From an uncultured Candidatus Actinomarina sp. (lineage in GTDB: Bacteria; Actinomycetota; Acidimicrobiia; Actinomarinales; Actinomarinaceae), in the NCBI GenBank assembly GCA_902580215.1, contig CACHJT010000002.1:72425-136424 (forward strand): 64,000 nucleotides of DNA, in the 5' to 3' direction. The notes under the pieces were generated by a model, which had not been told where the DNA came from, did not search any database, and worked only from the letters and a program-made list of their open reading frames with translations. This document shows, piece after piece, positions 5,639-26,821 of the stretch; within the stretch, counting starts at the first letter, position 1; the number at the start of each line of letters is the position of its first letter. The position numbers were made by a program, and so were the translations under genes.

Positions 5639-5640
5639 TT

Positions 5641-6705: not shown

Positions 6706-6731
6706 CCAAGTTTCCCATCTATCATTAAATT

Positions 6732-9268: not shown

Positions 9269-9278
9269 GGAGGGTAAA

Positions 9279-10307
9279 GTGAGACTCACAGAGTATTCTC
9301 ATGGCTCAGGTTGAGCATGTAAACTCTCCCAAGGAGAGCTTGCTCAGGTTCTGAAGCAATCAAAACAAAATAATTTAAACAATTCTGAAGTTTTAGTGGG
9401 GTTAGAAAATCCAGATGATGGCGCGGTTATTGATCTAGGCAATAAAACTAAAATTGTACAAACAGTTGATTTTTTTACGCCTATATTAGATAACCCCTAC
9501 GATTGGGGTAGAGTTGCTGCAACAAATGCCTTATCTGATATATATGCCATGGGTGGTACACCTATTTCATCTTTACAGTTAGTAAGTTGGCCAAGAGAAG
9601 ATATAGGTTTTGATGTCTTATCAGATGTTATTAGGGGAGGCTCAGATGTAATGAAGTCTGCCAATTGCAATATTGTTGGAGGGCACAGTATTGATGACAA
9701 AGAACCAAAATATGGTTTTGCCGTAACAGGTATCGTTAATGAAAAAATCTATACAAAAACGAATATTAAAAATGGAGATAAACTTTTTCTAACCAAGCCT
9801 CTCGGTTCTGGAATTATTGCAACCGCAATAAAAAAAGGAGTTGCCGATGAAGAAGCAATAAATCAGGTAACAAATGTAATGACAACCCTAAATGATGCAG
9901 GCCTTGAAGTCGCAAAGCACCTCAATGCAAATGCAATTACAGACGTTACTGGTTTTGGACTTCTTGGCCACCTGAGTGAAATGTTGATTGATGAAAAATT
10001 ATCAGCAAATTTGATATTCGATAAAGTTCCAATCATTGAGTTTGCAAAAAATTATTTTCATAGTGGCATTTATCCATCAGGAAGCCAAAGAAATTTAGAC
10101 TCAGTAAAAGACATTATCTCATTCGAGGATCAAGACGAGGCACTTTTATTAGCAGATGCTCAAACCAGTGGAGGATTATTAATTTCTGCACCTGCTGAAA
10201 CAGATATAGATTTGATAGAAATTGAAAAAATATATGGAGTTTTTCTAAAAGAAATTGGAAATATAACTGATAGATATAATCAAAAAATAAATATTATTAG
10301 TAGTTGA
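9279..10307 (+). CDS. selD: Selenophosphate synthetase SelD with an in-frame UGA (selenocysteine) codon at 9312-9314
   Basis: The track ORF (9396..10307) carries SelD motifs (DFFTPILDNPYDWGRVAATNALSDIYAMGG, GGHSIDD, DVTGFGLLGHLSEM). The same frame extends back to GTG 9279, which lies 5 nt after AAGGAGG. It reads VRLTEYSHGSG-TGA-ACKLSQGELAQVL, matching the E. coli loop RLTQYSHGAGCGCK with TGA at the catalytic Cys17 position. Confidence 0.85.
9312..9346 (+). promoter_or_regulatory. Putative bacterial SECIS hairpin starting at the selD UGA
   Basis: Lower stem 9312-9317 (TGAGCA) pairs with 9341-9346 (TGCTCA). Upper stem 9324-9329 (CTCTCC) pairs with 9333-9338 (GGAGAG). The apical loop is 9330-9332 (CAA), and there is an asymmetric internal loop. 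Confidence 0.45.
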
Positions 10308-11227
10308 TGATTAAAACACTAACTAAAATTTTTGCTTTTACTGCAGTAACAAAAAGCCTACTCGAGACCAAAAAGAGCCAATCTGCAGGAACTACACAAA
10401 TTCACCCAAGTAAAATTCCAGGCAGGACTGTATTCATAAGAGAAAAAGAATACTTTATTAGAGAAAATATTATAGACGGCACAACCCCTATAATATTTCT
10501 CCACAGCTGGGGGTCAGACTCCCTAGGAAGCTGGTTTAAAATATTGCCTAAAATTAAAAATGAAACCTCTTTTGTTGCTATAGATTTGCGTAATCATGGA
10601 AAGTCTGATGCTAGTTGGGACAGATGGGACGTAGATGAAAATGCCGATGTTGTTATTAGCATTCTAAAAGAGCTTGGCATTTCAAGTTGCAATATTGTTG
10701 GTTGGTCAATGGGAAGTGCAGTTGCAATGTCAATTGCCAAAAAAAATAAGCCATTAGTAAATAAATTAGTTTTAATTACACCTTTTAGCTGGCTTGGTGG
10801 TGCTGTGTATAGCGATAAAGTAGCATTTAAAATATTTGTTAGTTTTGTAAGAATAAGAGAAAGATTATTCCCTAATTTCAATCCAAAATCTAAGTTTTCA
10901 TTTTTAAAAAAATCAAACTCTATTAACGATGAATATACAGAGTGGGCATGGAACAATCTGCATAAATCAAAAGATGACTTCATTTACGCAGATGGGGGAA
11001 GATTTGTTGTTCCTTATGATGCAAGGTCTTGGATACAAGAAATTGAAGCTGAGACCCTAGTAATTACTGGGGGTAGAGATAAACTTGTACCAGAAGAAAC
11101 TTCAAATGATGTTGTTAAGAGATTAAAAGAAGTAAAAGTGAAAACTTTTCCTGATGCTGGCCACTCAGTTCCATGGACACATGAAGAAGATCTATTAACA
11201 GAACTTAGAGAATTTTTTAGTTTATGA
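10307..11227 (+). CDS. Alpha/beta-fold hydrolase
   Basis: Nucleophile elbow GWSMGS, an HG-type oxyanion region (IIFLHSWG) and a C-terminal DAGH catalytic His context. ATG 10307 shares one nt with the selD TGA; TTG 10304 is the alternative start used in the track. Confidence 0.7.
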   Translation: MIKTLTKIFAFTAVTKSLLETKKSQSAGTTQIHPSKIPGRTVFIREKEYFIRENIIDGTTPIIFLHSWGSDSLGSWFKILPKIKNETSFVAIDLRNHGKSDASWDRWDVDENADVVISILKELGISSCNIVGWSMGSAVAMSIAKKNKPLVNKLVLITPFSWLGGAVYSDKVAFKIFVSFVRIRERLFPNFNPKSKFSFLKKSNSINDEYTEWAWNNLHKSKDDFIYADGGRFVVPYDARSWIQEIEAETLVITGGRDKLVPEETSNDVVKRLKEVKVKTFPDAGHSVPWTHEEDLLTELREFFSL

Positions 11228-12357
11228 AAAAAAATGTACTATTTTTCTCACCAACTTTTTATGACTTACCTTTAAATGAAAATATAAAAAAAAAGTACGA
11301 TAATTTAAGTGAAGTCGCAAATGTTACGGTTCTTGCATTTTCGAGCCAAAAAAAAATACATTCTGAATCAAAGACAACTTTTTATTTAAATAAAAAAAAC
11401 AAATCAAGAATTTTTAACTATTTGAAAATATTTTTTGTATCTTATTTTCAAATACCTAAATTAATATCCCAATATGAAATTGAAATAGTTACATTTCAAG
11501 ATCCGGTAACAAGTTTTCTGGGTGTTTATAAAATCAAAAAAAAGTATAAAGATGTAAAAATAGTCATTGAATCACATGGAGATTTTATAAATACTTTGGA
11601 GTTAGAAAAAAATCTAACATTTCCAAATTTATATAAAAATTTATTTTCCAGGATGGCATCTTACACAATAAATTGCGCTGATATGTTGAGAGCAGTTTCT
11701 TCTTCTACAGAGGAGCAAGCACTGTCTTTTAATCCATCAAAACGTGTTGTAAGATTTCCAGCATGGATAGATTTTGAAATATTTAGCAACATCGACCCTA
11801 TGAGAGATGGTAGTGGAAAATTTAAAATACTCTTTATTGGAAGTGTGACTGATAGGAAAAAACCTCATATGATTATTGATGCCTTGCCCGAGTTAATTAG
11901 TGACCAGGTTGAGCTGAACATAGTAGGCCCAACACCCAATCAAAACTATCTTGAAAGTCTAAAAGAAAAAATAAAATCTAAAAATGTTGAAGATAGAGTT
12001 TTTATTCATGGAAATAAAAATAGAGATGAAGTGAAAAAGTTTTACTCTGAAAATAACTTAATGATTCTTCCTTCGGTATCAGAGGGCCTAGCAAGAGTAA
12101 TATTTGAGTCCCAAGTAACAGCATGCCCCGTGCTTGTTACAGACGCCCCTGGAATGCAAGACATAGTCATAGACGGACAAACAGGTTATGTATTTGAGAG
12201 TAATAATTTAGATTCCATGATAAAAAAAATAAATCATGTGATTCAAAATTATAATGAAGCAACTTCTGTTGGGATAAATGCAAAAGAATTCATTTTATCT
12301 AATTATTCCTCAGATAATTTTAAATTCAGTTTTCAAAAAATATTTGATACTGTTTAA
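11224..12357 (+). CDS. GT-B glycosyltransferase, family 4-like
   Basis: C-terminal motif SVSEGLARVIFESQVTACPVLVTDAPGMQDIVIDGQTGYVFE (E-x7-E type). ATGA start/stop overlap with the hydrolase gene. Confidence 0.75.
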   Translation: MKKNVLFFSPTFYDLPLNENIKKKYDNLSEVANVTVLAFSSQKKIHSESKTTFYLNKKNKSRIFNYLKIFFVSYFQIPKLISQYEIEIVTFQDPVTSFLGVYKIKKKYKDVKIVIESHGDFINTLELEKNLTFPNLYKNLFSRMASYTINCADMLRAVSSSTEEQALSFNPSKRVVRFPAWIDFEIFSNIDPMRDGSGKFKILFIGSVTDRKKPHMIIDALPELISDQVELNIVGPTPNQNYLESLKEKIKSKNVEDRVFIHGNKNRDEVKKFYSENNLMILPSVSEGLARVIFESQVTACPVLVTDAPGMQDIVIDGQTGYVFESNNLDSMIKKINHVIQNYNEATSVGINAKEFILSNYSSDNFKFSFQKIFDTV

Positions 12358-12409
12358 CTAAATAATACTTACAACATAAACTGTCTTGCTATATTGCTAT
12401 TCTTAAATT

Positions 12410-13435
12410 ATGGAAAATATATTTTATGGTTTAATAGTTATCCTCTTACTTGCCAATCTTTATTTTGTAACAAGAAAAGAAACTGAAGAAGACAATAAAG
12501 ATGACGAGTATTTAATTAAAGGAATTGTAAGTGAAATAATTGAAAATGAAGAATCCCAAATATACAAATTACTAAATAGGTCTGATCAGACAGTAAAAGA
12601 TTTTCTAGAGAAGACTGGTGAAATTAAGTCCTCTATAACTGGAGTGGATCAGCAAACTAGAAATTTAATATCTGTATTAAATAATAACCAAAGTAGAGGC
12701 CAGTGGGCAGAGTTTCAGGTCGAAGACTTGCTAGAAATTATGGAGTATAAAGAGGGCCTCCATTACCAAACCCAAAAAAGAATGTCTAGTGGTACAATTC
12801 CTGATTTCACATTTTATCTTCCTGAAAATAAAACAATAAATATGGATTCAAAATTTCCATTAACGAACTATATGGAGATAGCCAAATTAAACAGAGATCT
12901 TGAAGATGAAACTCTTGACGAGTTAGCACGAAAAGAAATAACTGAATCTATTAGAAGTAAAAATAAAGAGTTTTTAGATAAAGCAATTAAAACCAAAATT
13001 GATGATACATCTTCAAGGGAAGGGTACATATCAGCTGAAGAAGGTACTGTTGACTTTGTCTTAATGTACATACCACTTGAAAATTTGTATCACTTTTTAT
13101 TAACTTCAGAAATCGGTGCAAACAGAACACCTGTTATTCAGTATGCTTTCTCTAAAAAAGTTATACTAGTAAGTCCTCAGACACTAATGGCTTACCTCGA
13201 GACTATAAGGCACTCAATGAAACTATTCAGTTTACAAACTGATACAAAAAATATTTTGGCCACTCATGAAAAAATTAAAGTGGAAATTAGAAAGTTTATT
13301 GAATCTTTTGACGATGTAACTAAGAGGCTAGATCAAACTGTAAAATCTTTTGAGGCATTAAAAACTACTAGAGTAAATAAACTTGAGAAATCATTTGAAG
13401 AATTAGATAGCGTAAATAAGGAGCTAGAGGATTAG
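12410..13435 (+). CDS. rmuC: DNA recombination protein RmuC
   Basis: N-terminal TM segment, coiled-coil region, an RGQWAEFQVEDLLE motif and a C-terminal nuclease-like domain typical of RmuC. Confidence 0.8.
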   Translation: MENIFYGLIVILLLANLYFVTRKETEEDNKDDEYLIKGIVSEIIENEESQIYKLLNRSDQTVKDFLEKTGEIKSSITGVDQQTRNLISVLNNNQSRGQWAEFQVEDLLEIMEYKEGLHYQTQKRMSSGTIPDFTFYLPENKTINMDSKFPLTNYMEIAKLNRDLEDETLDELARKEITESIRSKNKEFLDKAIKTKIDDTSSREGYISAEEGTVDFVLMYIPLENLYHFLLTSEIGANRTPVIQYAFSKKVILVSPQTLMAYLETIRHSMKLFSLQTDTKNILATHEKIKVEIRKFIESFDDVTKRLDQTVKSFEALKTTRVNKLEKSFEELDSVNKELED

Positions 13436-13824
13436 TAATTATCGGCTAGTTTTGTGACAACCATTATGCATTTGTCATCTATATAATTTTTGTTATTAGA
13501 TTCTAAATACGAAGAAATTTCTGAACTCTCTGCACCAGGCTGATACCAGAAATTATCATAACCTGATTCAACTAGGTCTTTAGTTAATTCAAAACCAATA
13601 CTGGGTGGCACTACAAAATTAATTATTGATGGATTTTCACTCAGTTCAGAAACATTGTTGTATGACTTTAAACCAGCGATGAATGTTTCTTTAGGGTTTA
13701 CAGGAACAACATTATGACCTTTTGATACTAAGTCTAATAAAATCTTATTTCCATATTTATTTTTATCATTACTTGCTCCTATTAGAGCAATTAGGTTATT
13801 TTTGTTTTTTAATGAATCAATCAA
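13432..13824 (-). CDS. CoA-binding domain protein (YccU-like)
   Basis: 130 aa with an IALIGASNDKNKYGNKILLDL Rossmann-like start typical of the CoA_binding_2 family. Confidence 0.7.
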   Translation of the reverse strand: MIDSLKNKNNLIALIGASNDKNKYGNKILLDLVSKGHNVVPVNPKETFIAGLKSYNNVSELSENPSIINFVVPPSIGFELTKDLVESGYDNFWYQPGAESSEISSYLESNNKNYIDDKCIMVVTKLADNY

Positions 13825-15615
13825 TTAGAAGTTTTCAGCCTTCATTGCGTACAAATCATCTTTACCTGCTGTTATAGATGATGCGTATCCTGAAGCTAAA
13901 GGTAATAGTTGTTCTATATAAAATTTTGATAATGTTAGTTTGTCTTTGTAAAATTCATCACCAGTTTCTTTAAACTTTTTGTTTGCAAGAATTGCAGCTT
14001 TACCCATATAGTATCCACCTAAAACTTGACCAAACATTTTCAAATATGGTGTAGCACCAGCACTTGCATCAACCAACTCTCCCTCAAGCATTTTAGAACC
14101 AAGCCATAAAGTTATTTCAGATAATGTATTTACTTCTTTTTCAAGCTTTTCAGCCATTGATACAAGTTCTTCATCGTCTTGTTTCATTTCATCGATAACT
14201 TTATTGACATCTGATAGAAGCCTTTGCATTGCTTGACCATTATCAAGAGGTAGCTTTCTAAACATTAAATCTAATGCTTGAATTCCATTTGTTCCTTCAT
14301 AAATTGGAGCTATTCTTGCATCACGTAAGTACTGAGCTACTCCTGTTTCTTCAACATAGCCCATACCTCCATAGACTTGGATTGCAATATTAGACAATTC
14401 AACTCCAAGATCAGATATCCAAGCTTTAGTTATAGGTGTCAATATTCCACACCTTTCTTCACCAAATGCTTTCATTTCTTCGTCTTCTCCAAAGTACTCA
14501 ACATCAAGCATTAACTGGTTATCATACATGAGGTATCTCATTGCATCGACATATGCTTTAATTGTCATAAGCATTCTTCTTACATCTGCATGATCAATAA
14601 TTGTTGAATTTTTAGCGTCTTCCTTAGACATCCCTACAGGTCTTCCTTGTACTCGGTCTCTAGCATATTGAGCGGCACCTTGCAATGAACCTGAAGCACA
14701 TGCTAATCCTTGTCCACCTACCCATACACGAGCTTCGTTCATCATCGTAAACATATAGTTAAGACCTCGGTTCTCTTCTCCAACTAAATAACCAACAGAA
14801 CCATCATATTCCATAACACAAGTCGGACTTGCATGAATTCCCAGCTTTTCTTCGATAGATATACAACTTACATTATTTGAATCACCTACAGACCCATCAT
14901 CATTAACTGTATATTTTGGCACTATAAACATAGAGATACCTTTGGTTCCTTCAGGAGACCCAGGAACTTTAGCCAAAACAAGGTGAATTATATTTTCTGT
15001 CATGTTATGTTCACCAAATGTAATCCAAACTTTTGTGCCCGTTATTTTATACGAACCATCCTCTTGAGGCTCAGCCTTTGTAGTAATTGTTCCGAGATCT
15101 GACCCTGATTGAGGCTCACTCAAATTCATTGTTCCTGTCCATTCACCTGAAACAAGTTTTGGTAAAAATTTATCTTTTTGTTCTTGGCTGCCGTGAAAAT
15201 TTATAGCAGAAATTGCACCAGCACTTAAACCAGGTGCTAAACCAAAAGCTAAATTGGCTGTACTAAGAATTTCTAAAGTTCCACCAGACAATGTTATAGG
15301 CATTCCACCACCACCAATATCAGAAGGCAGAGATATTGAGGCCCATCCAGCTTCAGCAAATTTTTGATAAGCATCAACAAACTCTTCAGGCATGGTTACA
15401 ACCCCATCCTTAATCGTTGCTCCTTGCTGATCTCCAATGGCATTTATTGGCGCAAGGACTTCTTCAGAGAATTTAGCACACTCTTCCATTGTTGGAATAA
15501 CAATATCTTCTGAAAAATCACTAAATGCTGAAATTTTATTTAGAACATTATAAGAATCTATTACTTCATAACCAAAAACTATATCTTTAACTGGAGCTTT
15601 ATAGGGAACTGCCAT
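13825..15615 (-). CDS. Long-form acyl-CoA dehydrogenase (N-terminal extension + ACAD core + C-terminal domain; FadE5/DmdC-type architecture)
   Basis: 596 aa with ACAD core motifs (SEPQSGSDLG, ITGTKVWITFGEH, YEGTNGIQALDL) and the N-terminal AVPYKAPVKD extension seen in the ~600-aa subclass. Confidence 0.85.
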   Translation of the reverse strand: MAVPYKAPVKDIVFGYEVIDSYNVLNKISAFSDFSEDIVIPTMEECAKFSEEVLAPINAIGDQQGATIKDGVVTMPEEFVDAYQKFAEAGWASISLPSDIGGGGMPITLSGGTLEILSTANLAFGLAPGLSAGAISAINFHGSQEQKDKFLPKLVSGEWTGTMNLSEPQSGSDLGTITTKAEPQEDGSYKITGTKVWITFGEHNMTENIIHLVLAKVPGSPEGTKGISMFIVPKYTVNDDGSVGDSNNVSCISIEEKLGIHASPTCVMEYDGSVGYLVGEENRGLNYMFTMMNEARVWVGGQGLACASGSLQGAAQYARDRVQGRPVGMSKEDAKNSTIIDHADVRRMLMTIKAYVDAMRYLMYDNQLMLDVEYFGEDEEMKAFGEERCGILTPITKAWISDLGVELSNIAIQVYGGMGYVEETGVAQYLRDARIAPIYEGTNGIQALDLMFRKLPLDNGQAMQRLLSDVNKVIDEMKQDDEELVSMAEKLEKEVNTLSEITLWLGSKMLEGELVDASAGATPYLKMFGQVLGGYYMGKAAILANKKFKETGDEFYKDKLTLSKFYIEQLLPLASGYASSITAGKDDLYAMKAENF

Positions 15616-15656
15616 AAGTAATTATTTTAGTAGATATTTCTAAAAAGTATAAATTG

Positions 15657-16508
15657 CTAACGAAGGTTTACGTCTACAAGCTGTGATATTTCCTCAATTT
15701 TTTCAACTGTAGGTTTATCATTTGTTCCGGCTACGATAGCACCTGCTGCACAGGCTTTTTTTATATTTGGTATTAAGTCGTTTACACCAAAAGCTGCAAT
15801 ATATGCCGCAGTTGCATCTCCAGCACCATTTGAATTTATGGTTTTAAAATCTGGAGGAACTATTTCTATAGCCCCTTCTGTACTCAGTAGTCTCGCTGGC
15901 AAGTTCGAGGATGTTAAGAGTATATATTCTACAGTTTTTGAATCTATAAGATTATTAGCTTCATCAACACTAATCTCATCTTTGCTGACTATAAGAAAAT
16001 CTAATTTGTAATCAATTTCATATTCATAACCTGCTTGGCAAACAAACAAATTATTTTGTTTTTTGAGATCTTTCAGTTTATCTTTAATGAACCTAATAGA
16101 GTACCTATCTATAATTAGCGAATCAAAGTTGTTTAAATTTTCGAAATTACTCCACTCAAGGCCTTCATATCCTGAAGAGACTATTGTTCTCTCACCGGAA
16201 GAGTCTACAAAAATAGAACATGTTGGAGTTAATGATTGATTGATTATTAAACCATCAATATTTATGTTATTTTCATTTAGATAGTCAACTAAGTATTTAC
16301 CCATAGAGTCACTACCGATACTATTTCCTCTAACCTCAACGGATTTGTTCCAAAGAGAAATTAATTCCGAGCAATTTATAGCAGTCCCTCCTGGCCTCAT
16401 AGAAGACTTTAAACTACGAATATCACCACCTTTACTTGGCAACTCATCAACAAAGTAAATTAAATCGGGATTTAAAGTTCCAAAACAAAGAATATTCTTA
16501 AACGACAT
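15657..16508 (-). CDS. PfkB-family carbohydrate/nucleoside kinase
   Basis: The ribokinase-like C-terminal motif NSNGAGDATAAY, an N-terminal GxxNxD-like start, and a length of 283 aa. Confidence 0.75.
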   Translation of the reverse strand: MSFKNILCFGTLNPDLIYFVDELPSKGGDIRSLKSSMRPGGTAINCSELISLWNKSVEVRGNSIGSDSMGKYLVDYLNENNINIDGLIINQSLTPTCSIFVDSSGERTIVSSGYEGLEWSNFENLNNFDSLIIDRYSIRFIKDKLKDLKKQNNLFVCQAGYEYEIDYKLDFLIVSKDEISVDEANNLIDSKTVEYILLTSSNLPARLLSTEGAIEIVPPDFKTINSNGAGDATAAYIAAFGVNDLIPNIKKACAAGAIVAGTNDKPTVEKIEEISQLVDVNLR

Positions 16509-16525
16509 GAATTAAGAATTTTTAA

Positions 16526-18493
16526 TTATACAAGTCCGCTAATTACTGCTCCTGCAACCAGGATCGCGATGTAGCTAAACAAACCACCGACTATTGCAGC
16601 AAGTTTCATGCTACGAGAAATTGCACTAGGTCCGGCAAGATGATAAACCAAAACTCCAAAGAATGGAACCAGGTAAACAACTCCCAACCAAACATACTTC
16701 ATACTCCCATTAACCCTTTCGTTAGAGTCAATATCTTTTATTGCTAAAGCAGCCCATGCAGCATACAACACAAACGGCATCAAGTAACCGTAAAGTTGAA
16801 ACAATAACTGCCATATTGTAGGGCTAGAAATAGGCACTCCGCTCATAATTATCTCCTTTTCAGAATTGTAGTAATTTTCTAAGTCTTCATTTAGTAAGTT
16901 TGTTGGCACCTGTATAGAGTCTAAATCAGGTACATAAAATAAATTTATTGCAGGGGAAGGCTTATTGATATCTTTAAATTGCATGTTTTCTTGTTCCTTT
17001 GGCCATGGGTACTCTTTATATCTGTTTTTATCAAGTTCCGTTGTTTGGGCATCGGCAAAAAACCCAGCAAGCATCATTAAACCCGAAGGATCACCTTGTA
17101 AAGGAAACCTTGCAATCAAGTTTGAAGAGTCTATTGATGAACAGTTATGAAGTTGCTCTAAAAGTGGTGGGGTACTTGTTTGATAAACATTATCCTCAAA
17201 ACAATTTCCTGGACCCCATGGGCCAGCAAGAGCCAAGTCAGTGTATCCAGAATCTAAAACAATGTTGTCTTTTACACTCACATGTTGTGAAAAATATAAA
17301 TTAGCATCCAACATTGGACTTGCAACGATGCCATACCTGTCGTGGTTAACAACCAAATTTTTTTCTATTATGTCACCTACTCTTCCAGGCACAACTATTC
17401 CCATTCCTTTTGCAACAACACCAAATCGATTTGTTGGAGCTTCATAGTTGTTATTATCTATGACTAAATTGCCTACAATTGTTGTTTCTCGCCCTGGTGG
17501 ATTTAGCTCGGAGTCAAGAGTATTTGGTACTATCCCTGACATATTGTCTCTCCAGATATTGTTATAAAGATACAAGTGACCTCCTGCATTAGTTCCCGAG
17601 TAACCTAAAGCATTTCCTTCTACGACATTATCAAAAATTAATGAGTTACATGGATAACATTGTCCAATATAAATTCCACTATCAGGATGTCCTGATGCAT
17701 ATACATTATCAAACACACCATCTGTTGAATTAAATGCATAGACTCCATAATCACCATTGTTATAAACAGTGAGGTAAGAACCTTTAAAACCTTTTGAAGT
17801 ATTCCAGTAGACACCATTTAATGAAAAATTTCTTACAGAGAGATTTTCAACCGTTACCCCATCTGTTTCATAGATTTGAATACCATTCTCCCTCATAAAC
17901 TCTCCATCAATTATGACTTTATTTCTGTCGGTACCTCTAAGGGTTAAATATGAGGTGGTAACTGTGACACTTTCGTTATACACCCCGGGACTAATTAAAA
18001 CTAAATCACCGGTGTTTGCGCTATCTACAGCATCTTGAATTGTTGTGTACTGTTCATTTTTTCCAACTTTAAGCACATTGTCAGTCAAAGTAACAGAAAC
18101 GGCCTCAACAGTTTCTGTATAATCTACGTCGCCAACAACAATTGTTCCAACCATCCCTTTATTATTTGTTCCATGATACGGACAGTAGTATTCATAAACC
18201 CCAGGCTCATTGAAGGTGTGTTCATATTGATCGCCTTTAGTAATGATTCCATATTCAAAATAATCCGATGATATAGCCTGCCAAGAGCCATCGCTAGCAA
18301 TTACATTATGATTATTGGCCCCTCCTGATTCCCAAATTACTGTTGTGCCTGGTTCAACTCGCAGAACTCTCGGTGAAAACTCATCGTCTACAACTTTCAC
18401 GACTTGTGGCGTAAGATCTGTAGCCTCTTCGGAGCCACAAGCAAATAATAATAAAAAAGATGAAAGTAAAAGTACTTTGAACAATTTGTCCAT
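16526..18493 (-). CDS. Lipoprotein fusion: type-1-copper cupredoxin domain + right-handed beta-helix (NosD-like) region + C-terminal PLDc_N-type transmembrane domain
   Basis: Signal peptide with lipobox LLFAC. Cupredoxin ligand set (NNHNV ... YYCPYHGTNNKGM). A long G/N/V-rich repeat region typical of parallel beta-helix proteins. C-terminal TM helices contain WLGVVYLVPFFGVLVYHLAG. A GGAGG SD precedes the ATG. Confidence 0.7.
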   Translation of the reverse strand: MDKLFKVLLLSSFLLLFACGSEEATDLTPQVVKVVDDEFSPRVLRVEPGTTVIWESGGANNHNVIASDGSWQAISSDYFEYGIITKGDQYEHTFNEPGVYEYYCPYHGTNNKGMVGTIVVGDVDYTETVEAVSVTLTDNVLKVGKNEQYTTIQDAVDSANTGDLVLISPGVYNESVTVTTSYLTLRGTDRNKVIIDGEFMRENGIQIYETDGVTVENLSVRNFSLNGVYWNTSKGFKGSYLTVYNNGDYGVYAFNSTDGVFDNVYASGHPDSGIYIGQCYPCNSLIFDNVVEGNALGYSGTNAGGHLYLYNNIWRDNMSGIVPNTLDSELNPPGRETTIVGNLVIDNNNYEAPTNRFGVVAKGMGIVVPGRVGDIIEKNLVVNHDRYGIVASPMLDANLYFSQHVSVKDNIVLDSGYTDLALAGPWGPGNCFEDNVYQTSTPPLLEQLHNCSSIDSSNLIARFPLQGDPSGLMMLAGFFADAQTTELDKNRYKEYPWPKEQENMQFKDINKPSPAINLFYVPDLDSIQVPTNLLNEDLENYYNSEKEIIMSGVPISSPTIWQLLFQLYGYLMPFVLYAAWAALAIKDIDSNERVNGSMKYVWLGVVYLVPFFGVLVYHLAGPSAISRSMKLAAIVGGLFSYIAILVAGAVISGLV

Positions 18494-18556
18494 ATTAAAT
18501 TTTACCTCCGCATTATTTCAGATTCCAATTAATTAAAAATAAGTTAATATAAATAT

Positions 18557-18850
18557 ATGAGTGAAGACAGGTATCCTAAACAAAACGAATCGATAAATAA
18601 TAAACACGAGGGAAACACACCTTCTTTTAAAAAACCTTTTAAAAAACCTATGTTTTGCAATGAAGAAAAATGCGATATTTCCAATTTCTCTGAAGACGTA
18701 GTCACTATGACTGGAAAAAGTTGGTCTAGGTTTATGAACATCCAAAATAGAAAGTTTACTGCGATTTCATGCTCTGAATGCAATTATACAGAGTTTTATA
18801 AAGGTAAATCTAAAGGCTGGGAAAGCGTAATAGATTTTTTGGGAAATTAA
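18557..18850 (+). CDS. Zn-ribbon protein (DUF2082/zinc_ribbon_13-like) with a Lys-rich N-terminal extension
   Basis: FCNEEKC ... SRFMNIQNRKFTAISCSECNYTEFYK resembles the small nucleic-acid-binding Zn-ribbon family (F-x-V-Q-N-x-K-F ... C-x2-C-G-Y-T-E-x-Y). Preferred over two overlapping antisense ORFs. Confidence 0.5.
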   Translation: MSEDRYPKQNESINNKHEGNTPSFKKPFKKPMFCNEEKCDISNFSEDVVTMTGKSWSRFMNIQNRKFTAISCSECNYTEFYKGKSKGWESVIDFLGN

Positions 18851-18856
18851 AAAGAT

Positions 18857-19705
18857 TTAAGCCTGAATCCAATCTTCAGGGTTATCATCAACAAAAAAAT
18901 CTGAGACAAGCTTTGCGTCTGGATCTATGGCGTATTGATCAAAATCAGAAACACCTTCTTCTTCAAGAACATCTTGATCTAAAAAGAAATTACCAGTACA
19001 AGTAGAGGAGTCTCTTTTTAAAACTGCATAAGCAGCATCTGCATAAATAGAAGGTTTTCTAGACCCCTTAACTAACTCAGCTCCAATAACGTTTCTTACA
19101 GCTGCTGTGTCAAGTGAAGTTCTTGGCCAAAGGCAATTGGATGCAACATTATGTTTTCCAAGTTCTTCAGCTAGACCATGTGCCACTAAAGACATTCCAT
19201 ATTTTGCGGTAGTGTAGGCAAGAGTCATACCAAACCACTTACGATCTATATCTAAAGGCGGAGATAGTGTCAAAATATGTGGATTATCTCCATTTTTAAG
19301 ATGGGGTATGCATTTTTGACTTAACATAAAAGTTCCGCGTACATTAATATTGTGCATCAAGTCGTATCTTTTCATTGGGGTATTGACAGTGTCAGTCAGG
19401 TGTATAGCACTGGCATTATTGATACAAATATCAATGCCACCAAACTTGCTTGCAGTTTCTTCTACAGCAGCCTCTACTTGCTCTTCGAACCTAATATCAC
19501 AAACTATTGGCAGCGCATTACCTCCAACTTGCTCTATCTCTTCTGCTGCGGTGAAAATTGTTCCCGGAAGAGTCGGATGAGGTTCTGTTGTTTTTGCTAA
19601 AATTGCAATATTTGCCCCATCTTTTCCAAGTGCCTTTGCTATTTCAAGACCTACTCCACGTGAGCCTCCGCTCATAATTACTGTTTTGTTTTTAAAATAT
19701 GTCAT
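18857..19705 (-). CDS. Short-chain dehydrogenase/reductase, HSDL2-like
   Basis: MSGGSRGVGLEIA cofactor motif, a YTTAKYG catalytic Y-x3-K, and end-to-end resemblance to the SDR domain of hydroxysteroid-dehydrogenase-like protein 2 (KTTEPHPTLPGTIFTAAEEIE). Confidence 0.85.
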   Translation of the reverse strand: MTYFKNKTVIMSGGSRGVGLEIAKALGKDGANIAILAKTTEPHPTLPGTIFTAAEEIEQVGGNALPIVCDIRFEEQVEAAVEETASKFGGIDICINNASAIHLTDTVNTPMKRYDLMHNINVRGTFMLSQKCIPHLKNGDNPHILTLSPPLDIDRKWFGMTLAYTTAKYGMSLVAHGLAEELGKHNVASNCLWPRTSLDTAAVRNVIGAELVKGSRKPSIYADAAYAVLKRDSSTCTGNFFLDQDVLEEEGVSDFDQYAIDPDAKLVSDFFVDDNPEDWIQA

Positions 19706-19717
19706 TTTTATATTCTA

Positions 19718-20977
19718 TTAAAATTGTGTATTCTCTGTAGAGTCTTTTTTTGAAAGTAGTTCTGATTCGTCTCCAAGTAAGGCTTCACCAATTCTTTCAT
19801 AGTAATTCCCACCAACTTCTTGTTGATGCTTTATCCCTGTGTAACCATCTTTTGACAAATCTTTTTCAAACTGTTGAAGTTCTAAGATTGCACTCATATT
19901 TCCACCTTTGTATTTTGATGCTAAGTCATACATTGAACTTGCTAATGAATGAAAACCGGCAAGAGAGACAAATTGTAATTTATATCCATATGAACTAAGT
20001 TCACTTTGGAAGTTTTCAATTTCTTTTTTAGTAAATTTATCTAACCAATTAAATGATGGAGAGCAATTATATGCAAGAATTTTATTTGGATGAGATTTTC
20101 TTATTTCATCAGCGAATTCTTTTGCAAAGCCTAAATCTGGAGTATTAGTTTCACACCATACTACATCTGCGTAATCAGCGTAGTTAAGTGATTTTGTTAT
20201 CGCCATCTCATGGTTGTTTTCAATTAAGAAGTACCCATCAGAAGTTCTATTTTTACTGAGATATTTACTGTCTCTATCATCAAAATCTGATGTCATTAGC
20301 TTTGCGTTCATTGCATCTGTTCTAGCAATGATGATTATTGGAACTCCTGAAACATCAGATGATAATCTTGCAGCATTAAGTTTTTTAATATATTCATGTG
20401 TAGGGATTACAACTTTCCCACCAACATGCCCACATTTTTTTTCAGAAGCAAGTTGGTCTTCAAAATGAATTCCGGATACTCCAGAATCTATAAATTGATT
20501 TGTAAGTTCGTATACATTATAAATTCCACCAAAACCAGACTCGCCATCAGCAATAATTGGAGGTAACTTTTTTTTATCTAGTTCTGCCATCCTTCTCAGG
20601 AGTGTATTATTAATTTTTTTCACAAAATTTGGAGTACTGTTTGATGGATAAAGTGATAAGTCTGGGTAAGTATTAACTCCCATGTTGCTCTCTGCCGCTA
20701 CTTGCCAACCACTTACATAAATTATTTCATAATCAAGATGGTACATTTGGAGAGCTTGTTGTGCTGTTGCAGCCCCCAATCCAGATACCCATAAATCTTC
20801 CCTACTAAGAAGATCCAAAAGTAGTCCAGACCCAATCTCAGATAAAGTGTGTTCTACTTTATACGAAGGTCTCAAAGAACAGATATCATTGACAGAGTAA
20901 TCTCTTTTTATGCCAAACCATCTCTTAGATGATAAGTACTCTTCTACAGTTTCAATTTGGTTAAAAGTTTGATTCAT
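19718..20977 (-). CDS. aceA: Isocitrate lyase
   Basis: ICL signature KKCGHVGGKV and a length of ~419 aa from ATG 20977. The track start at 21010 would overlap the upstream gene. Confidence 0.9.
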   Translation of the reverse strand: MNQTFNQIETVEEYLSSKRWFGIKRDYSVNDICSLRPSYKVEHTLSEIGSGLLLDLLSREDLWVSGLGAATAQQALQMYHLDYEIIYVSGWQVAAESNMGVNTYPDLSLYPSNSTPNFVKKINNTLLRRMAELDKKKLPPIIADGESGFGGIYNVYELTNQFIDSGVSGIHFEDQLASEKKCGHVGGKVVIPTHEYIKKLNAARLSSDVSGVPIIIIARTDAMNAKLMTSDFDDRDSKYLSKNRTSDGYFLIENNHEMAITKSLNYADYADVVWCETNTPDLGFAKEFADEIRKSHPNKILAYNCSPSFNWLDKFTKKEIENFQSELSSYGYKLQFVSLAGFHSLASSMYDLASKYKGGNMSAILELQQFEKDLSKDGYTGIKHQQEVGGNYYERIGEALLGDESELLSKKDSTENTQF

Positions 20978-20981
20978 AAAT

Positions 20982-22097
20982 TTAGTGTTGGCTTGCAGCC
21001 ACACTAGCAATTATAACAATAAGAGTCAACACTCCAGCAGACGCAATAAGAACTTCACTTCTTGTAATTTTTATCTTAGGAGCTGCACTCATTACACTTG
21101 CAAAAAGTAAAATTGCAGCTGAAATAATTAATGCAAATAGTGGTGCATATTCATGAAAGTTTAAAAATACTTGCGCAATAGCAACCGCAATTAGACCACC
21201 AACAACTATTGATCCCAATGGAATCACGATTGAGCCAACAATTCTCTGGCGAATTTTTTGAGCTTCAGAATCCTCAAAATCTTCAAGCCCTTTAGGAACA
21301 CCAAGTAGCATTGTCAAGGTAGAGATCGCAGCTTGAACAAAAGTTGATAAGATTACAACCCTCCAAAAAGCGCTACCAACTGTGATTAAATTTATTACCG
21401 GATCATCAGGAAGAACAGGTTCTATTGTTTGCCCAACGCTATTAATTATAAAAAATGCTGTTGAGGAACCTAAGACTAAACCTAGCCCCCCACCAGTAAA
21501 TACAGATTCTCTATCAGAAGTAAGTATGCCAAAACCATCAAAATTTGAATCCAAAAACTTTTTAACATTCAATGAATTAAGTATTCCAAGAAAGCTAGTA
21601 GATAGTGAGATGATTATAACAAATGACACAGCATCATATTCTGCTATTAACTTCTGTGTTTCAGCTTCGAGTATTAGTCCATCGTAGAGATAAGAGCTTG
21701 AAAGAAGCCCCTGGACAAATCCAGCTATAACTCCAAAACCCAATCCAAATTTTAAAGACCTTAATAATTTCTGACTAATACTTACAGGAGGTGGCAAGTC
21801 TTCTTTTATTAAAACTGCTGTTTGAATTTGTTCAACAAGATTTTCAGGTTCTTCTACTTCAACGGGTTCATCTACTTGCTCTTCTACTGGAGTAGAAGTG
21901 TCTTCGACTACCACCTGTGATTCTGATACTGTTTCATTAGCTGGCGCTGCTTGGATAGCCTCACCACCAGTCCAGCTGTTTAGAACATCATTTACAGAAA
22001 CCCCAGATGCTTCAGCCCTTGCTTGTGCAGACCGTGATACCAACATTTGAGGAATACCACTGCTTGAGCTAATTTGATCTACTAATTTTTCATCCAT
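20982..22097 (-). CDS. Hypothetical membrane protein: soluble N-terminal ~50 aa, acidic linker, ~7 TM segments
   Basis: A 371-aa ORF lying between the ctaG-like gene and aceA on the same strand, with spacers of 18 nt and 4 nt. No family recognised. Confidence 0.5.
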   Translation of the reverse strand: MDEKLVDQISSSSGIPQMLVSRSAQARAEASGVSVNDVLNSWTGGEAIQAAPANETVSESQVVVEDTSTPVEEQVDEPVEVEEPENLVEQIQTAVLIKEDLPPPVSISQKLLRSLKFGLGFGVIAGFVQGLLSSSYLYDGLILEAETQKLIAEYDAVSFVIIISLSTSFLGILNSLNVKKFLDSNFDGFGILTSDRESVFTGGGLGLVLGSSTAFFIINSVGQTIEPVLPDDPVINLITVGSAFWRVVILSTFVQAAISTLTMLLGVPKGLEDFEDSEAQKIRQRIVGSIVIPLGSIVVGGLIAVAIAQVFLNFHEYAPLFALIISAAILLFASVMSAAPKIKITRSEVLIASAGVLTLIVIIASVAASQH

Positions 22098-22115
22098 AAT
22101 AAAATCTATATAATT

Positions 22116-22895
22116 CTAGTCATTTGAGTTGTTTCTCACTACATCATCAAACGTTTTTTCATCTTGGTACCATCTCATCCAAATAACTAGGATTGAAATC
22201 CACAAAATAATTCCTCCACCAAGTTTTAATATCAAACCTGCCAATGTCTGGTCATTAATTACTGAAATGCTGAATATGTTTTCACTCATGACGTATGCTG
22301 AATAAAGTGGTTCTGTGCCAAAAGCTAGAAAACTTGCTGGTATTGTTGGCAATAATGATTGTAAAAATAAGTATCCTATTTTTGCAGCCGAGTTTATTGG
22401 CCTAATTTCATCATTAAACCCTATTACTGGCACCCACATGTTTAATGAGACCAAAAGCATTATCGAGTGTATAAAAAAATGTGCAATAGTGTTTGTTACC
22501 ATTAGATTCACAACAGAGGACCAATGCATTCCCACCATTACAAAATTAAACATAAAAAAAGCAACTACAGGCTTAGACGTTATTTTTAAAGTTTTAATAA
22601 ATGGTTTTACTGAAATAAGCTCTTTCATGTCCCTATGCATACCCATTAATAAAAGAGGAGGGGAAACTAAAGCCAAAACAAGGTGTTCTACAGAATGAAC
22701 CCAAAACAAGTATTTTTCTCCAATATCATGTATTGGGTAATCAGTGAATATCCAGAGTGCTATTAGGCCCGAGTACCATGTTTTTCTTTTAGGTTTTTTT
22801 AGATGCTCTTTATTAGTAGTAAATTCAAAAAATACTACAAGAGTTACAATCAAAGCCCATACGTCATAGTGAGGATGCCAAGGTAAGTTCTGCAT
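22116..22895 (-). CDS. ctaG: Cytochrome c oxidase assembly factor, Caa3_CtaG family
   Basis: A polytopic 259-aa protein with the VHSVEHLVLALVSPPLLLMG motif (H-x2-H-L ... P-P-L-L) typical of Caa3_CtaG. It follows directly after ctaF. Confidence 0.65.
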   Translation of the reverse strand: MQNLPWHPHYDVWALIVTLVVFFEFTTNKEHLKKPKRKTWYSGLIALWIFTDYPIHDIGEKYLFWVHSVEHLVLALVSPPLLLMGMHRDMKELISVKPFIKTLKITSKPVVAFFMFNFVMVGMHWSSVVNLMVTNTIAHFFIHSIMLLVSLNMWVPVIGFNDEIRPINSAAKIGYLFLQSLLPTIPASFLAFGTEPLYSAYVMSENIFSISVINDQTLAGLILKLGGGIILWISILVIWMRWYQDEKTFDDVVRNNSND

Positions 22896-22902
22896 TTAAA
22901 AC

Positions 22903-23202
22903 CTAAAAATAATTCGCTGAAGCTCTTTCGACCATGACGATAGTAAAAAGTATCAAAGCTAAGATCATACCGCCAACAAAGAACCTATTAATTGTCTTAT
23001 TTTCGTAACGCAGATGCATAAACCAACCCACCACAATTATGAATTTTCCTACTGCTAAAAATATCAAAAGTGGATCAGTGAAAACACCAACAATGTCTTC
23101 TGTGTAATAAAGAGCTATCTCAATTGCAGTTAAAACACCAAGTACGATTGCTATTTGAACATATTTTTTTGGAGTCGGGTGTTCTATGTGATTATCGGAC
23201 AT
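22903..23202 (-). CDS. ctaF: Cytochrome c oxidase subunit IV (prokaryotic COX4_pro type)
   Basis: 99 aa with 3 TM segments. The N-terminal HPTPKKYVQIAIVLGVLTAIEIALYY is typical of Bacillus-type subunit IV. It lies 1 nt after ctaE. Confidence 0.65.
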   Translation of the reverse strand: MSDNHIEHPTPKKYVQIAIVLGVLTAIEIALYYTEDIVGVFTDPLLIFLAVGKFIIVVGWFMHLRYENKTINRFFVGGMILALILFTIVMVERASANYF

Positions 23203-23203
23203 A

Positions 23204-23788
23204 TCAAATTAAGTAAACTACTGTAAACAATACTATCCAGACAATGTCAACAAAGTGCCAATAAAGCGCAACAAATTCAAGATTCATTCCACCTTCAAGT
23301 GTTAACCCTTTTTGTCTTTGACCAATTCCCCATAATGCTAAAAGTAAGACTACACCAATAAAAACATGCAATCCATGAAAGCCAGTTAATACGTAAAAGG
23401 ATGAACTAAAGATATTTGTTGTTAGCTCAAAACCTTTATGATAAAACTCTGTAAATTCGTATATTTGTCCTGCTAAAAATACTGCGCCTAACATTGCTGT
23501 TGCTAGAAGCCATACTCTTGTTTTTTCTTGATCATTTGCTTCTAATGCATTGTGAGCCAACACCATAGTTAATGAACTCATTAACAAAATAAATGAGCTA
23601 ATGGATGTAAATGGAATATCATACACATCTGTTAATTTCATTCCAGGAAAGTCGCTTCCTTTAAATATCATAAAGGTGGTAATTAATGTGCCAAAAAACA
23701 ATATTTCAGTGGATAAAAATACCCACATACCAAGTTTTCTGGTTTCTACACCTGTGGGTTCATGTGGATAGGAGTGAGAGCTACTCAT
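23204..23788 (-). CDS. ctaE: Cytochrome c oxidase subunit III (short, 5-TM form)
   Basis: 194 aa with subunit III motifs (FFGTLI, GFHGLHVFIGV, YWHFVDIVW). Confidence 0.85.
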   Translation of the reverse strand: MSSSHSYPHEPTGVETRKLGMWVFLSTEILFFGTLITTFMIFKGSDFPGMKLTDVYDIPFTSISSFILLMSSLTMVLAHNALEANDQEKTRVWLLATAMLGAVFLAGQIYEFTEFYHKGFELTTNIFSSSFYVLTGFHGLHVFIGVVLLLALWGIGQRQKGLTLEGGMNLEFVALYWHFVDIVWIVLFTVVYLI

Positions 23789-25739
23789 CTGAGTCTATAT
23801 GGATTTCTTCTTCAAGCGGTTCTGTTCCCCAACCAAATCCCCCTATGAGTAACAACACTGTACCAATTAAAGCTAATGGAATAGATTTATAAATAACTGC
23901 ATACCCTAAAAATGGGAGACCAGATGCCAGGACAATCGGGAAATATGAAGGATTAGGTAAAGCGATATGTTCACTAGGGTTTAGGCCATCTTCTTCTAAT
24001 TCAAGAAGTATCTGATCAGCTTCTTCACGTCTAACTGCTCTGCCTTCTTCATCTTCAGAATATTTAGTGTGCCAGAAGTCATCAAGTGATTTAACAATAG
24101 GTGCTGTTGAAAAATTCCAAACAGGTGTAGGTGATGGAATGGCCCATTCTAACGTCCTTGCATCCCAAGGGTCAAATGGAGCTTTTTCTCCGGTTCTTTT
24201 TGAGAAAATCCAATTGATCATGAAAACAATAATTGACAAAGCGATGATAAAAGCCCCGACTGTTACAACAATATTCCAGAATTGTAAGTTTGTTTCTTCT
24301 GCATATACCCAGGTACGTCTTACCTGACCTTGAAGCCCTAACCAATGCATTGGTCCAAAAGTAAGATTAAAACCAATCATCATTAGCCAAAAGTGTATCT
24401 TTCCAAGCGACTCGTTATACATTTTGCCCCAAACTTTTGGAAACCAATAATAAAGTCCAGAAAAAATTCCAAACAAAGCTCCACCAAATAAAACGTAGTG
24501 AAAGTGAGCTACAACATAGTAGGTATCTGTTTGCTGTGTATCAGCTGGAACTATTGAGTGAGTTACACCACTCAAACCACCAATTACAAACATACCTATA
24601 AAACCTAATGAAAACAGCATTGGGGTATTCAGCTTTAGCTTTCCTCCCCATATTGTGCCAAGCCAATTAAATATTTTTACACCTGTTGGGACAGCAATAA
24701 CCATTGTTGATAAACCAAAACCAGCTTGAGCAACTGGGCTAATCGCAGAAGCAAACATGTGGTGAGCCCACACTCCAAAACCTATAAACGCAATTCCAAA
24801 TCCTGCAAAAACTATTGCAGCATAACCAAAAAGTGGCTTTCTTGAAAAAGTTGGAAGAACTTCCGAGACAATTCCAAATGCAGGCAGGATTAGAATATAA
24901 ACTTCTGGATGTCCAAATAGCCAGAAAAGATGCTGCCATAAAATTGGATCACCTCCGCCTTCTGTTAAGAAAAACGTAGTTCCAAATTTTCTATCAAATG
25001 TTACATAGAAGAGTGCTATTGCAATTATTGGTAAAGAAAATGCAAGCAAAAAAGAGACAGCAAAAGTCATCCAAGTAAATACTGGCATTCTCATAAACCG
25101 CATGCCTTCTGTTCTCATGTTGATAATGGTTGTAATAAAATTGAATGCAGAAATTAAAGAAGCTATTCCAAGTATCTGTAGCCCTATAGCCCAATAATCC
25201 ATGGCAGTCCCTGGGGAGTATTTCATACCTGCATTTGGTTGATATCCAAACCAACCCCCGTTAGGTGCTGAGCCTAGCCAACCAACTTCCTCAGCTAAGT
25301 ATCCGCCCTCTGGTGCTCCTGCAGTACCAAATATAAATGTAGAATATAAAAATGCTCCTCCGAAAATAAATATCCAGAAGGAAAGAGCATTTAGCCTTGG
25401 AAAAGCAACATCACGCGCTCCAATTTGTAGCGGAAGAAGATAATTAAAGAAGGCAGCACTAATTGGCATAATTGCCAAGAAAATCATCGTGGTTCCGTGC
25501 ATTGTAAACATTGCATTGTACTCTGCCGCTGTTAAGAAATTGTTATCTGGTTGTGAAAGCTGAATCCTAAGAATGAGCGCTTCAAGCCCACCAATCAAAA
25601 GAAAGAAAAACGCTGCATAACCATACATTATTCCAATTCTTTTATGATCTACAGTAGTTATCCAACTCCATATACCAGTTTCAGAAGAAGGCCTTCTGAA
25701 AATACTGCTTTGTTTACTCGGTTCTATTATTTTTGTCAT
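23781..25739 (-). CDS. ctaD: Cytochrome c oxidase subunit I with a ~90-aa C-terminal two-helix extension
   Basis: Heme-copper oxidase motifs (WFFGHPEVYILILP, HHMF, VVAHFHYV). The 652-aa length includes a tail, LPNPSYFPIVLASGLPFLGYAVI... Confidence 0.95.
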   Translation of the reverse strand: MTKIIEPSKQSSIFRRPSSETGIWSWITTVDHKRIGIMYGYAAFFFLLIGGLEALILRIQLSQPDNNFLTAAEYNAMFTMHGTTMIFLAIMPISAAFFNYLLPLQIGARDVAFPRLNALSFWIFIFGGAFLYSTFIFGTAGAPEGGYLAEEVGWLGSAPNGGWFGYQPNAGMKYSPGTAMDYWAIGLQILGIASLISAFNFITTIINMRTEGMRFMRMPVFTWMTFAVSFLLAFSLPIIAIALFYVTFDRKFGTTFFLTEGGGDPILWQHLFWLFGHPEVYILILPAFGIVSEVLPTFSRKPLFGYAAIVFAGFGIAFIGFGVWAHHMFASAISPVAQAGFGLSTMVIAVPTGVKIFNWLGTIWGGKLKLNTPMLFSLGFIGMFVIGGLSGVTHSIVPADTQQTDTYYVVAHFHYVLFGGALFGIFSGLYYWFPKVWGKMYNESLGKIHFWLMMIGFNLTFGPMHWLGLQGQVRRTWVYAEETNLQFWNIVVTVGAFIIALSIIVFMINWIFSKRTGEKAPFDPWDARTLEWAIPSPTPVWNFSTAPIVKSLDDFWHTKYSEDEEGRAVRREEADQILLELEEDGLNPSEHIALPNPSYFPIVLASGLPFLGYAVIYKSIPLALIGTVLLLIGGFGWGTEPLEEEIHIDSDE

Positions 25740-26749: not shown

Positions 26750-26821
26750 ATTTATATTATCAACAATTATTAAGAATAGCGTTGAAACTATATATAGTGT
26801 AATCATAAGTACTATGTCGTT

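Follow-up and report, generated by a model that had tools for sequence, protein, structure and literature searches.

Several described systems place blue copper proteins or beta-helices outside the cytoplasmic membrane. Auracyanin, halocyanin and sulfocyanin are single-domain type-1 copper proteins held on the outer membrane face by a lipid or a helix. In the amicyanin-methylamine dehydrogenase and pseudoazurin-NirK pairs, and in NirK variants with a fused carrier, a type-1 copper site with H/C/H/M ligands serves one extracytoplasmic enzyme, next to whose gene it is encoded or to which it is fused. NosD is the periplasmic beta-helix component of NosDFY, which matures nitrous oxide reductase, and works with the ATP-binding cassette (ABC) transporter NosFY and the chaperone NosL. 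PLDc_N is a two-helix membrane hairpin that occurs N-terminally in cardiolipin synthases and also as small stand-alone proteins. Here we describe a gene from a 64,000-nt stretch of an uncultured Candidatus Actinomarina sp. (contig CACHJT010000002.1; the whole stretch is called the window below) whose 655-aa product combines three of these known elements, namely cupredoxin, beta-helix and PLDc_N hairpin. As far as we could find, a beta-helix as redox partner has no precedent. We assign a probability of roughly 0.45 to the reading of this protein as a membrane-tethered oxidoreductase outside the cytoplasm, with the beta-helix as its catalytic or binding unit and blue copper relaying electrons to the respiratory chain.

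The 655-aa product has five parts: a lipobox signal peptide, a cupredoxin, a beta-helix, an ordered extension and a three-helix tail (Table 1). All its domain matches lie well above chance, and an AlphaFold2 model of the protein has a mean predicted local distance difference test score (pLDDT) of 87 and a predicted template-modelling score (pTM) of 0.77. An earlier note, written from the letters of the window, had described a lipobox (LLFAC) protein with a complete type-1 copper set, a beta-helix of ~350 aa and a PLDc_N-type membrane tail, and had proposed domain scans, AlphaFold and Foldseek comparison and synteny with the cta genes as checks. Each of these parts was recovered. The open reading frame (ORF), its hydropathy and the lipobox pattern agree with a lipoprotein, the Pfam scan returned cupredoxin and beta-helix matches, the structure comparison found both folds, and the beta-helix came out at ~320 aa. 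At the N-terminus, MDKLFKVLLLSSFLLLFAC19 combines a hydrophobic stretch with a lipobox-like LFAC; LLFAC19 ends the hydrophobic signal as a lipobox does, and Cys19 is predicted to be the lipidated first residue of the mature protein. Phe is a less usual residue at lipobox position -2. A loose lipobox pattern occurs in 29 of 61 homologues, many of which have an A-A-C-G/S motif at the same place.

By profile, ligand set and modelled fold, the second part belongs to the cupredoxin family and is predicted to bind copper. Pfam Copper-bind (PF00127) matches residues 38-120 (E 3e-11; 44.0 bits versus a cut-off of 21.2), and the best NCBIfam cupredoxin match is the halocyanin domain. The closest solved structures by sequence are the Nitrosopumilus cupredoxin 5fc9, blue-copper proteins and plastocyanins. 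Foldseek comparison of the modelled domain with plastocyanin, amicyanin and 5fc9 gave target-normalised template-modelling scores of 0.7-0.8 and a Greek-key beta-sandwich. The type-1 copper ligands H62, C104, H107 and M114 are invariant in 61 of 61 full-length homologues that share 38-88% identity with the query. Their C-x2-H-xn-M loop has x6 in the window protein and x7 to x9 in its relatives, and is longer in the window protein than is known for amicyanin or plastocyanin. Like auracyanin, halocyanin and sulfocyanin, the protein is predicted to carry an anchored type-1 copper site on the outer membrane face, but its cupredoxin is joined to a conserved module of 415 residues and a second anchor. 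Unlike in the amicyanin and NirK systems, the partner is a beta-helix for which no redox cofactor is known.

Whether fused or split, the cupredoxin and the beta-helix are a conserved pair. Joint Genome Institute (JGI) metagenome contigs were searched with a profile of nine helix-only proteins, and the 80 loci obtained were scored in six frames with domain hidden Markov models (HMMs) from a family alignment; domain counts were taken from these matches because simple ORF calling gave false antisense ORFs on contigs of high G+C content. In 32 loci the cupredoxin lies upstream of the helix and is fused to it in one reading frame; 15 of these also have the membrane tail. It occupies a separate frame directly upstream on the same strand in 28 loci, with 126-374 nt between domain envelopes, and lies elsewhere within ~1-2 kb in 6. 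Seven loci are undecidable at a contig end and seven have no cupredoxin, giving linkage in 66 of 73 informative loci. All 66 partner cupredoxins keep the type-1 ligands, 59 with an axial Met (C-x2-H-xn-G-M) and 7 with an axial Gln. Because the pairing recurs widely as fused or adjacent genes, it probably represents an unstudied family of cell-surface redox enzymes. The seven Gln-bearing proteins (loci L048, L049, L052, L053, L054, L055 and L065) make up one fused subclade with the loop CTLHGTPTSGQ. Axial Gln marks a stellacyanin-type ligand set and usually lowers the potential.

Conservation within the family is highest in the beta-helix, at 40-55% identity between 50%-identity clusters. It matches Pfam Beta_helix (PF13229, E 2e-14) and Pfam NosD (PF05048, E 8e-7), and AlphaFold2 renders it as a regular three-stranded coil over residues ~140-435, with pLDDT mostly 92-98. 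Among 135 diverse helix domains, positions kept at 90% or more comprise the Gly and Asn residues expected for a coil and a second group: Y172, R186, R190, D196, E216, Y249, D271, Y275, C279, C282, T301, D419, C431 and C451. In the strand order of the model, R186, E216, Y249, D271/Y275 and S299/T301 fall on the first strand of consecutive turns, and one of those strands is followed by the C279-x-P-C282 loop. On this secondary-structure order, the conserved polar residues would line one face of the helix with the Cys pair beside them. The CxPC motif is kept in 97-98% of the 135 family members and in 80 of 80 metagenome loci. Its retention does not track the cupredoxin: we found no correlation between the two losses, and the CxxC is present in all seven loci without a cupredoxin. 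One Haladaptatus protein (P0164) has lost both CxPC cysteines (GRNDPF).

Two other roles for the cysteines were considered. Haem attachment at CxPC was rejected, as a His follows the motif in ~10% of relatives and does not in the window protein. A four-Cys metal cluster of C279, C282, C431 and C451 is thought unlikely, the two pairs being some five coil turns apart by model strand order. The conservation of C431 and C451 at the C-terminal end of the coil suggests that they probably form a structural, capping disulfide.

This conservation also bears on whether the helix does any chemistry. Monoderm bacteria and archaea commonly use membrane-anchored cupredoxins in place of soluble carriers, and the window protein has membrane anchors at both ends, as would suit a plain membrane-bound shuttle of the auracyanin, halocyanin or sulfocyanin kind with the helix as a rigid stalk or docking scaffold. 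We consider this improbable. Conservation is higher in the helix than in the cupredoxin, and the helix contains invariant polar and Cys residues; often it is encoded by a gene of its own that includes a signal sequence. Moreover, a 415-residue stalk held at a ratio of nonsynonymous to synonymous substitution rates (dN/dS) of ~0.05 would be unlikely in a streamlined genome (streamlining, PMC7771536).

A proteobacterial sister family, NCBIfam TIGR03805 ('beta_helix_1'), which is the closest relative with a name and is itself uncharacterised, pairs the same kind of helix with a different carrier. The window protein scores 87.1 bits against this model (E 1e-24), below the 141.5 cut-off and outside the family, and the helix-only relatives P0136 and P0221 also fall under it at 68-71 bits. 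A tblastn search of plasmids with the helix module reached a Ruegeria pomeroyi megaplasmid gene (SPO_RS20610), a true TIGR03805 member at 163 bits. Its helix is homologous to that of the window protein (28% identity over 248 aa, E 7e-19), and R186, D196/G197, Y249/G250, D271, G273, Y275 and G277 are among the aligned positions. Both proteins fuse a beta-helix to a one-electron carrier, a C-terminal haem c in TIGR03805 and an N-terminal cupredoxin in the window protein. All 119 full-length TIGR03805 relatives have CxxCH within their last 120 residues, whereas the window protein has no CxxCH motif. Conversely, a CxPC/CxxC loop occurs in only 2 of the 119 and not in the Ruegeria protein, and TIGR03805 has no PLDc_N tail. 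With copper in one branch and haem in the other, one beta-helix lineage has been tied to a one-electron carrier in two ways.

The TIGR03805 gene also has a characteristic operon. In Ruegeria, Neptunomonas, Metapseudomonas and Roseateles, which span the alpha-, beta- and gamma-proteobacteria, it comes last, behind three other genes. The first of these encodes a cytochrome c, which is of the dihaem type in three of the four loci; the second encodes a dihaem enzyme of the CCP/MauG kind (MbnH-like); and the product of the third is 305-358 aa long, with tetratricopeptide repeat (TPR) matches in three of the four loci. The haem c and MauG-operon trait is an observation of this analysis and not part of the curated definition of TIGR03805. 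The presence of a MauG-like neighbour suggests that the TIGR03805 beta-helix protein carries a protein-derived cofactor; the gene in the window has no MauG-like or TPR-type operon neighbours. Literature searches on TIGR03805/SO_2930, on DUF1996 and on MauG with a beta-helix found no description. The earlier note had called an extracytoplasmic electron-transfer role conceivable, and the conserved fused or split pairing together with the haem c-fused sister family makes that role much better supported.

These observations are consistent with the following working scheme for the proposed oxidoreductase. The protein would be held on the outer face by its N-terminal lipid anchor and its C-terminal PLDc_N-type tail. 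The beta-helix and extension would bind or transform a substrate at a groove formed by R186, R190, D196, E216, Y249, D271, Y275 and T301 together with CxPC, where C279-x-P-C282 may be a redox-active dithiol/disulfide or a copper-thiolate site. The cupredoxin would act as a dedicated one-electron relay linking the helix site to the respiratory chain. Its most plausible partner there would be the caa3 oxidase, whose haem c domain would receive the electrons: the CtaC encoded in the window ends in a haem c motif, CTQCH, so its oxidase is of the caa3 type and could accept electrons from a small carrier. Type-1 copper typically has potentials of about +200 to +700 mV and dithiols have negative ones, so with a CxPC dithiol electrons would run from the helix site to copper to the oxidase. 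With a second copper at CxPC, either direction would be possible. Helix catalysis, the role of CxPC, the direction of electron flow and the respiratory partner are all things we infer.

Several points weigh against this scheme. We can name neither a catalytic activity nor a cofactor or substrate, and the 135 helix domains have no conserved His cluster or other evident metal site. We know of no close precedent for two-electron thiol chemistry coupled to one-electron copper with no mediating cofactor. Foldseek's top matches to the beta-helix are non-redox polysaccharide enzymes. Seven metagenome loci and two haloarchaeal megaplasmid copies have no nearby cupredoxin. Finally, the metatranscriptome contigs described below may hold DNA, as carry-over in those libraries is possible.

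A broader reading unites the two families. Together with TIGR03805, the window protein might belong to one unrecognised class of beta-helix extracytoplasmic oxidoreductases that a fused carrier wires to the respiratory chain, the active centre being a CxPC copper-thiolate or dithiol in the actinobacterial and chloroflexal branch or a MauG-made protein-derived cofactor in the proteobacterial branch. We consider this less likely than not. With a blue-copper partner here and haem c in the sister family, the two so far anonymous families can be joined in a single testable hypothesis: that cell-surface redox chemistry tied to the respiratory chain has a further, new fold. If true, the abundant marine Actinomarina would gain an external electron donor or acceptor. 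Discovery of a substrate would mean a further pathway, for energy or detoxification, in organisms modelled as simple photoheterotrophs.

Structural comparison of the helix raises a different possibility, an envelope or exopolysaccharide enzyme of the lyase, epimerase or esterase type. Its groove would bind a glycan, with the cupredoxin in an accessory, regulatory or binding role. The best Foldseek matches are PL6 chondroitinase B, the mannuronan epimerases AlgE4 and AlgE6 and pectin methylesterase, and Arg/Asp/Tyr grooves are typical of sugar-binding beta-helices. These matches share only 13-14% identity, and the profile search of solved structures aligned just the pectin methylesterase N-terminal cap (E 2e-8), over profile positions 44-123 or ~80 residues. 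At sequence level the protein is thus not a member of the PL6, epimerase or pectin methylesterase families. Strict conservation of four copper ligands and the exchange for haem c in the sister family would be hard to explain with no redox role, and in the loci examined the gene has no conserved neighbours for glycan synthesis or export. We regard a glycan enzyme as doubtful, if somewhat less so than the plain shuttle.

Copper handling is the likeliest of the alternatives, though still an unlikely one. A NosD-like helix would hold Cu(I) on CxPC and pass it to a cuproenzyme, for example to CuA or CuB of the caa3 oxidase, with the cupredoxin setting the oxidation state of the copper. CxxC is a classical Cu(I)-binding motif, and Pfam NosD scores over its cut-off (29.1 versus 23.6 bits). 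NosD and the window protein share a right-handed beta-helix, a place outside the cytoplasmic membrane and a copper-related context, and the earlier note had called the helix NosD-like. As a family assignment this did not hold. The NosD subfamily model TIGR04247 reaches 31.6 bits against a cut-off of 300 and aligns only at model positions 1-68, about the first 70 residues; the family-profile search of solved structures returned no NosD chain; and no nosF/nosY, nosL or nosZ partner lies among the window neighbours. Membership of NosD was rejected on the subfamily score, the missing adjacent ABC partners and the solved-structure matches. To our knowledge, NosD itself has neither a fused cupredoxin nor a CxPC loop nor a membrane tail. 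Copper delivery also fits poorly with type-1 copper sites being buried, non-labile electron-transfer sites, and the replacement of copper by haem c in the sister family fits electron transfer better.

The remaining argument for copper delivery is the nearby oxidase operon. The gene lies 3.6 kb from ctaG of the ctaG-ctaCDEF cluster in all Actinomarinales; in the window, four unrelated genes lie between, one of them on the other strand. Across loci L001-L040, compared with window positions 9000-27000, the order of ~17 kb from ctaC to rmuC is essentially identical in ~40 Actinomarinales species; it varies only in that the isocitrate lyase or Zn-ribbon gene is sometimes missing. Three distant full-length homologues on long contigs have no neighbours in common with the window or with each other, and no cta genes, nosF/nosY-type ABC, Sco or PCuAC genes are adjacent there; the window has no such ABC, Sco or PCuAC genes next to the gene either. 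The cta linkage is thus gone outside the order. The earlier note was right about the distance and the caa3 type, but the proximity is not functional evidence because it reflects order-wide synteny, and the cta operon was rejected as a functional neighbour. CuA maturation is a possible role to which none of these findings points specifically. The probability left over goes to something not considered here.

The C-terminal parts differ in how tightly they belong to the helix. The ordered extension has a helix at 469-484 and a P-x-P-x2-Q-x2-M motif at ~496-504, in which Q501 is invariant and P496, P498 and M504 nearly so among the 61 homologues. Its pLDDT is 72-85 over 461-490 and 79-96 beyond, mostly above 90. 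Nearly all of the 80 metagenome loci have the extension beside the helix, even where the membrane tail is missing, so the extension is part of the helix module. The tail is present in 17 of the 80 and is therefore an optional anchor. By model and hydropathy its helices span 560-590, 596-620 and 627-651, and the first two form the PLDc_N-type hairpin (AAWAALAIKDID...VWLGVVYLVPFFGVLVYHLAG), with W580, D587, P610 and G613 invariant and W586, W602 and Y617 near-invariant. PF13396 scores 22.9 bits on residues 592-621, slightly below its cut-off of 23.3, and is precomputed in most homologues at 40-50% identity and in nearly all distant full-length ones. The motifs W...D..RR and W....P..G..Y are common to PLDc_N and the window tail; here, in contrast, the hairpin is C-terminal, is followed by a third helix and accompanies no phospholipase D domain, and an anchor role is presumed. 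If the N-terminal part is outside, the W-D-x2-R-R loop would be inside, as would the C-terminus, and the protein would be pinned to the outer membrane face at both ends.

The three-part protein is common yet uncharacterised. An exhaustive HMMER search over 1.84 billion cluster representatives found 397 clusters (50% identity) at E <= 1e-30. A domain census of the best 150 of these gave 79 helix-only, ~27 cupredoxin-helix, 12 helix-tail and 9 cupredoxin, helix and tail clusters. In a 90%-identity collection, a profile search yielded at least 120 clusters, nearly all 620-700 aa long and nearly all covered at full length. Beta_helix and PLDc_N are recorded for nearly all of them and a cupredoxin family for most; the few names with a taxon are Actinomycetota, Acidimicrobiia and Chloroflexota (Herpetosiphonaceae). 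Sources name them only 'plastocyanin', 'cupredoxin domain-containing', 'PLDc N-terminal domain-containing', 'right-handed parallel beta-helix repeat-containing' or 'hypothetical'. Family members come from soil, freshwater and marine Actinomycetota and from Chloroflexota, with a few haloarchaeal copies. A literature search for the three-part architecture found no description. The architecture that the earlier note thought unusual has therefore no characterised representative that we could find, but it is not rare.

The gene is intact and strongly constrained. The window has a G+C content of ~34% and matches Candidatus Actinomarina single-cell and metagenome-assembled genomes. An identical protein (100%, P0001) exists in a public collection, and the gene of Candidatus Actinomarina AG-912-D06 (locus L001) is 100% identical. 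The gene lies on the minus strand, on which point the earlier note was silent. A Shine-Dalgarno-like GGAGG lies 11 nt 5' of the ATG; a promoter and terminator scan did no better than shuffled sequence. The gene occurs in ~40 species-level Actinomarinales genomes at 69-100% identity. Against other Actinomarina species dN/dS is 0.03-0.07 (synonymous sites are saturated or nearly so), and the gene is under strong purifying selection. Contigs from four marine metatranscriptome runs span most of it at 90-99% identity, mostly 95-99%, and several run on into the pfkB-like gene, whose start is 17 nt downstream of the stop codon. According to the Actinomarinales genome paper, which makes no mention of copper, cupredoxin or cytochromes, Candidatus Actinomarina is a highly streamlined marine epipelagic actinobacterium (PMC7771536). 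A 2-kb uncharacterised gene, covered by marine metatranscriptome contigs, is thus kept under strong constraint in a streamlined genome.

Table 1. Features of the gene and its surroundings. Positions are those of the window, or of the named locus where one is given.
Feature	Coordinates	Strand	Basis or remark
Complete coding sequence, 655 aa and stop	16526..18493	minus	ATG start; stop codon at 16526-16528; ORF list and translation
Shine-Dalgarno-like GGAGG	18505..18509	minus	upstream sequence
Signal peptide with lipobox, residues 1-19	18437..18493	minus	hydropathy, sequence, model helix 2-17
Cupredoxin (type-1 copper, predicted), residues 30-122	18128..18406	minus	PF00127, halocyanin/plastocyanin models, PDB matches, Foldseek
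His62, predicted first copper ligand (NNHNV)	18308..18310	minus	invariant in 61 homologues
Predicted copper ligand loop C104-P-Y-H107-G-T-N-N-K-G-M114	18152..18184	minus	C104, H107, M114 invariant
Right-handed parallel beta-helix, residues 141-460	17114..18073	minus	PF13229, PF05048, TIGR03805, model
C279-Y-P-C282 (CxPC) loop	17648..17659	minus	directly past a strand of the conserved sheet; candidate redox/metal site
C431...C451 pair, C-terminal end of beta-helix	17141..17203	minus	97% and 94% conserved
Ordered C-terminal extension, residues 461-555	16829..17113	minus	model and conservation
Three-helix membrane tail, residues 556-655	16529..16828	minus	hydropathy, model, PF13396
PfkB-family kinase, acyl-CoA dehydrogenase, CoA-binding protein			downstream of gene
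Zn-ribbon protein (PF09855, DUF2082)	18557-18850	plus	upstream, divergent; 63 nt between start codons
Short-chain dehydrogenase, isocitrate lyase, membrane protein with no Pfam match			further upstream
371-aa protein	20982-22097	minus	directly after ctaG
ctaG, cox IV, ctaE, ctaD, ctaC			then upstream
CtaC	25736-26806	minus	C-terminal haem c motif CTQCH
TIGR03805 operon, L130	2055-6281		
TIGR03805 operons, L134, L135, L136	~2000-6380		
DUF1996 lipoprotein gene, L064	7311-8309		
DUF1996 lipoprotein gene, L079	7257-8195		
DUF1996 lipoprotein gene, L109	7360-8223		
Haloarchaeal megaplasmid copy, L128 (Haladaptatus)	5884-7089		no cupredoxin within 6 kb
Haloarchaeal megaplasmid copy, L129 (Natrinema)	5869-6750		no cupredoxin within 6 kb
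N-terminal fragment, L041 (NYXO01000068.1)	10001-10606		94% identical

Some further genes accompany members of the family. In split actinobacterial loci the helix gene is often followed by a gene for a secreted DUF1996 (PF09362) lipoprotein of 290-330 aa with the motifs SHxHxFFGN, TFPDCWDG and HPVxxPQL (12 loci); it may be a third component of these loci, and no DUF1996 homologue was found in the window. The plasmid copies of haloarchaea and Streptomyces have uninformative neighbours. A contig binned as 'Methanobacteriota archaeon' holds an N-terminal fragment of the gene and was probably mis-binned. Within the window, the 371-aa protein combines an acidic N-terminal half with several membrane helices and has no Pfam match; its position after ctaG is kept throughout Actinomarinales, and it may be oxidase-associated.

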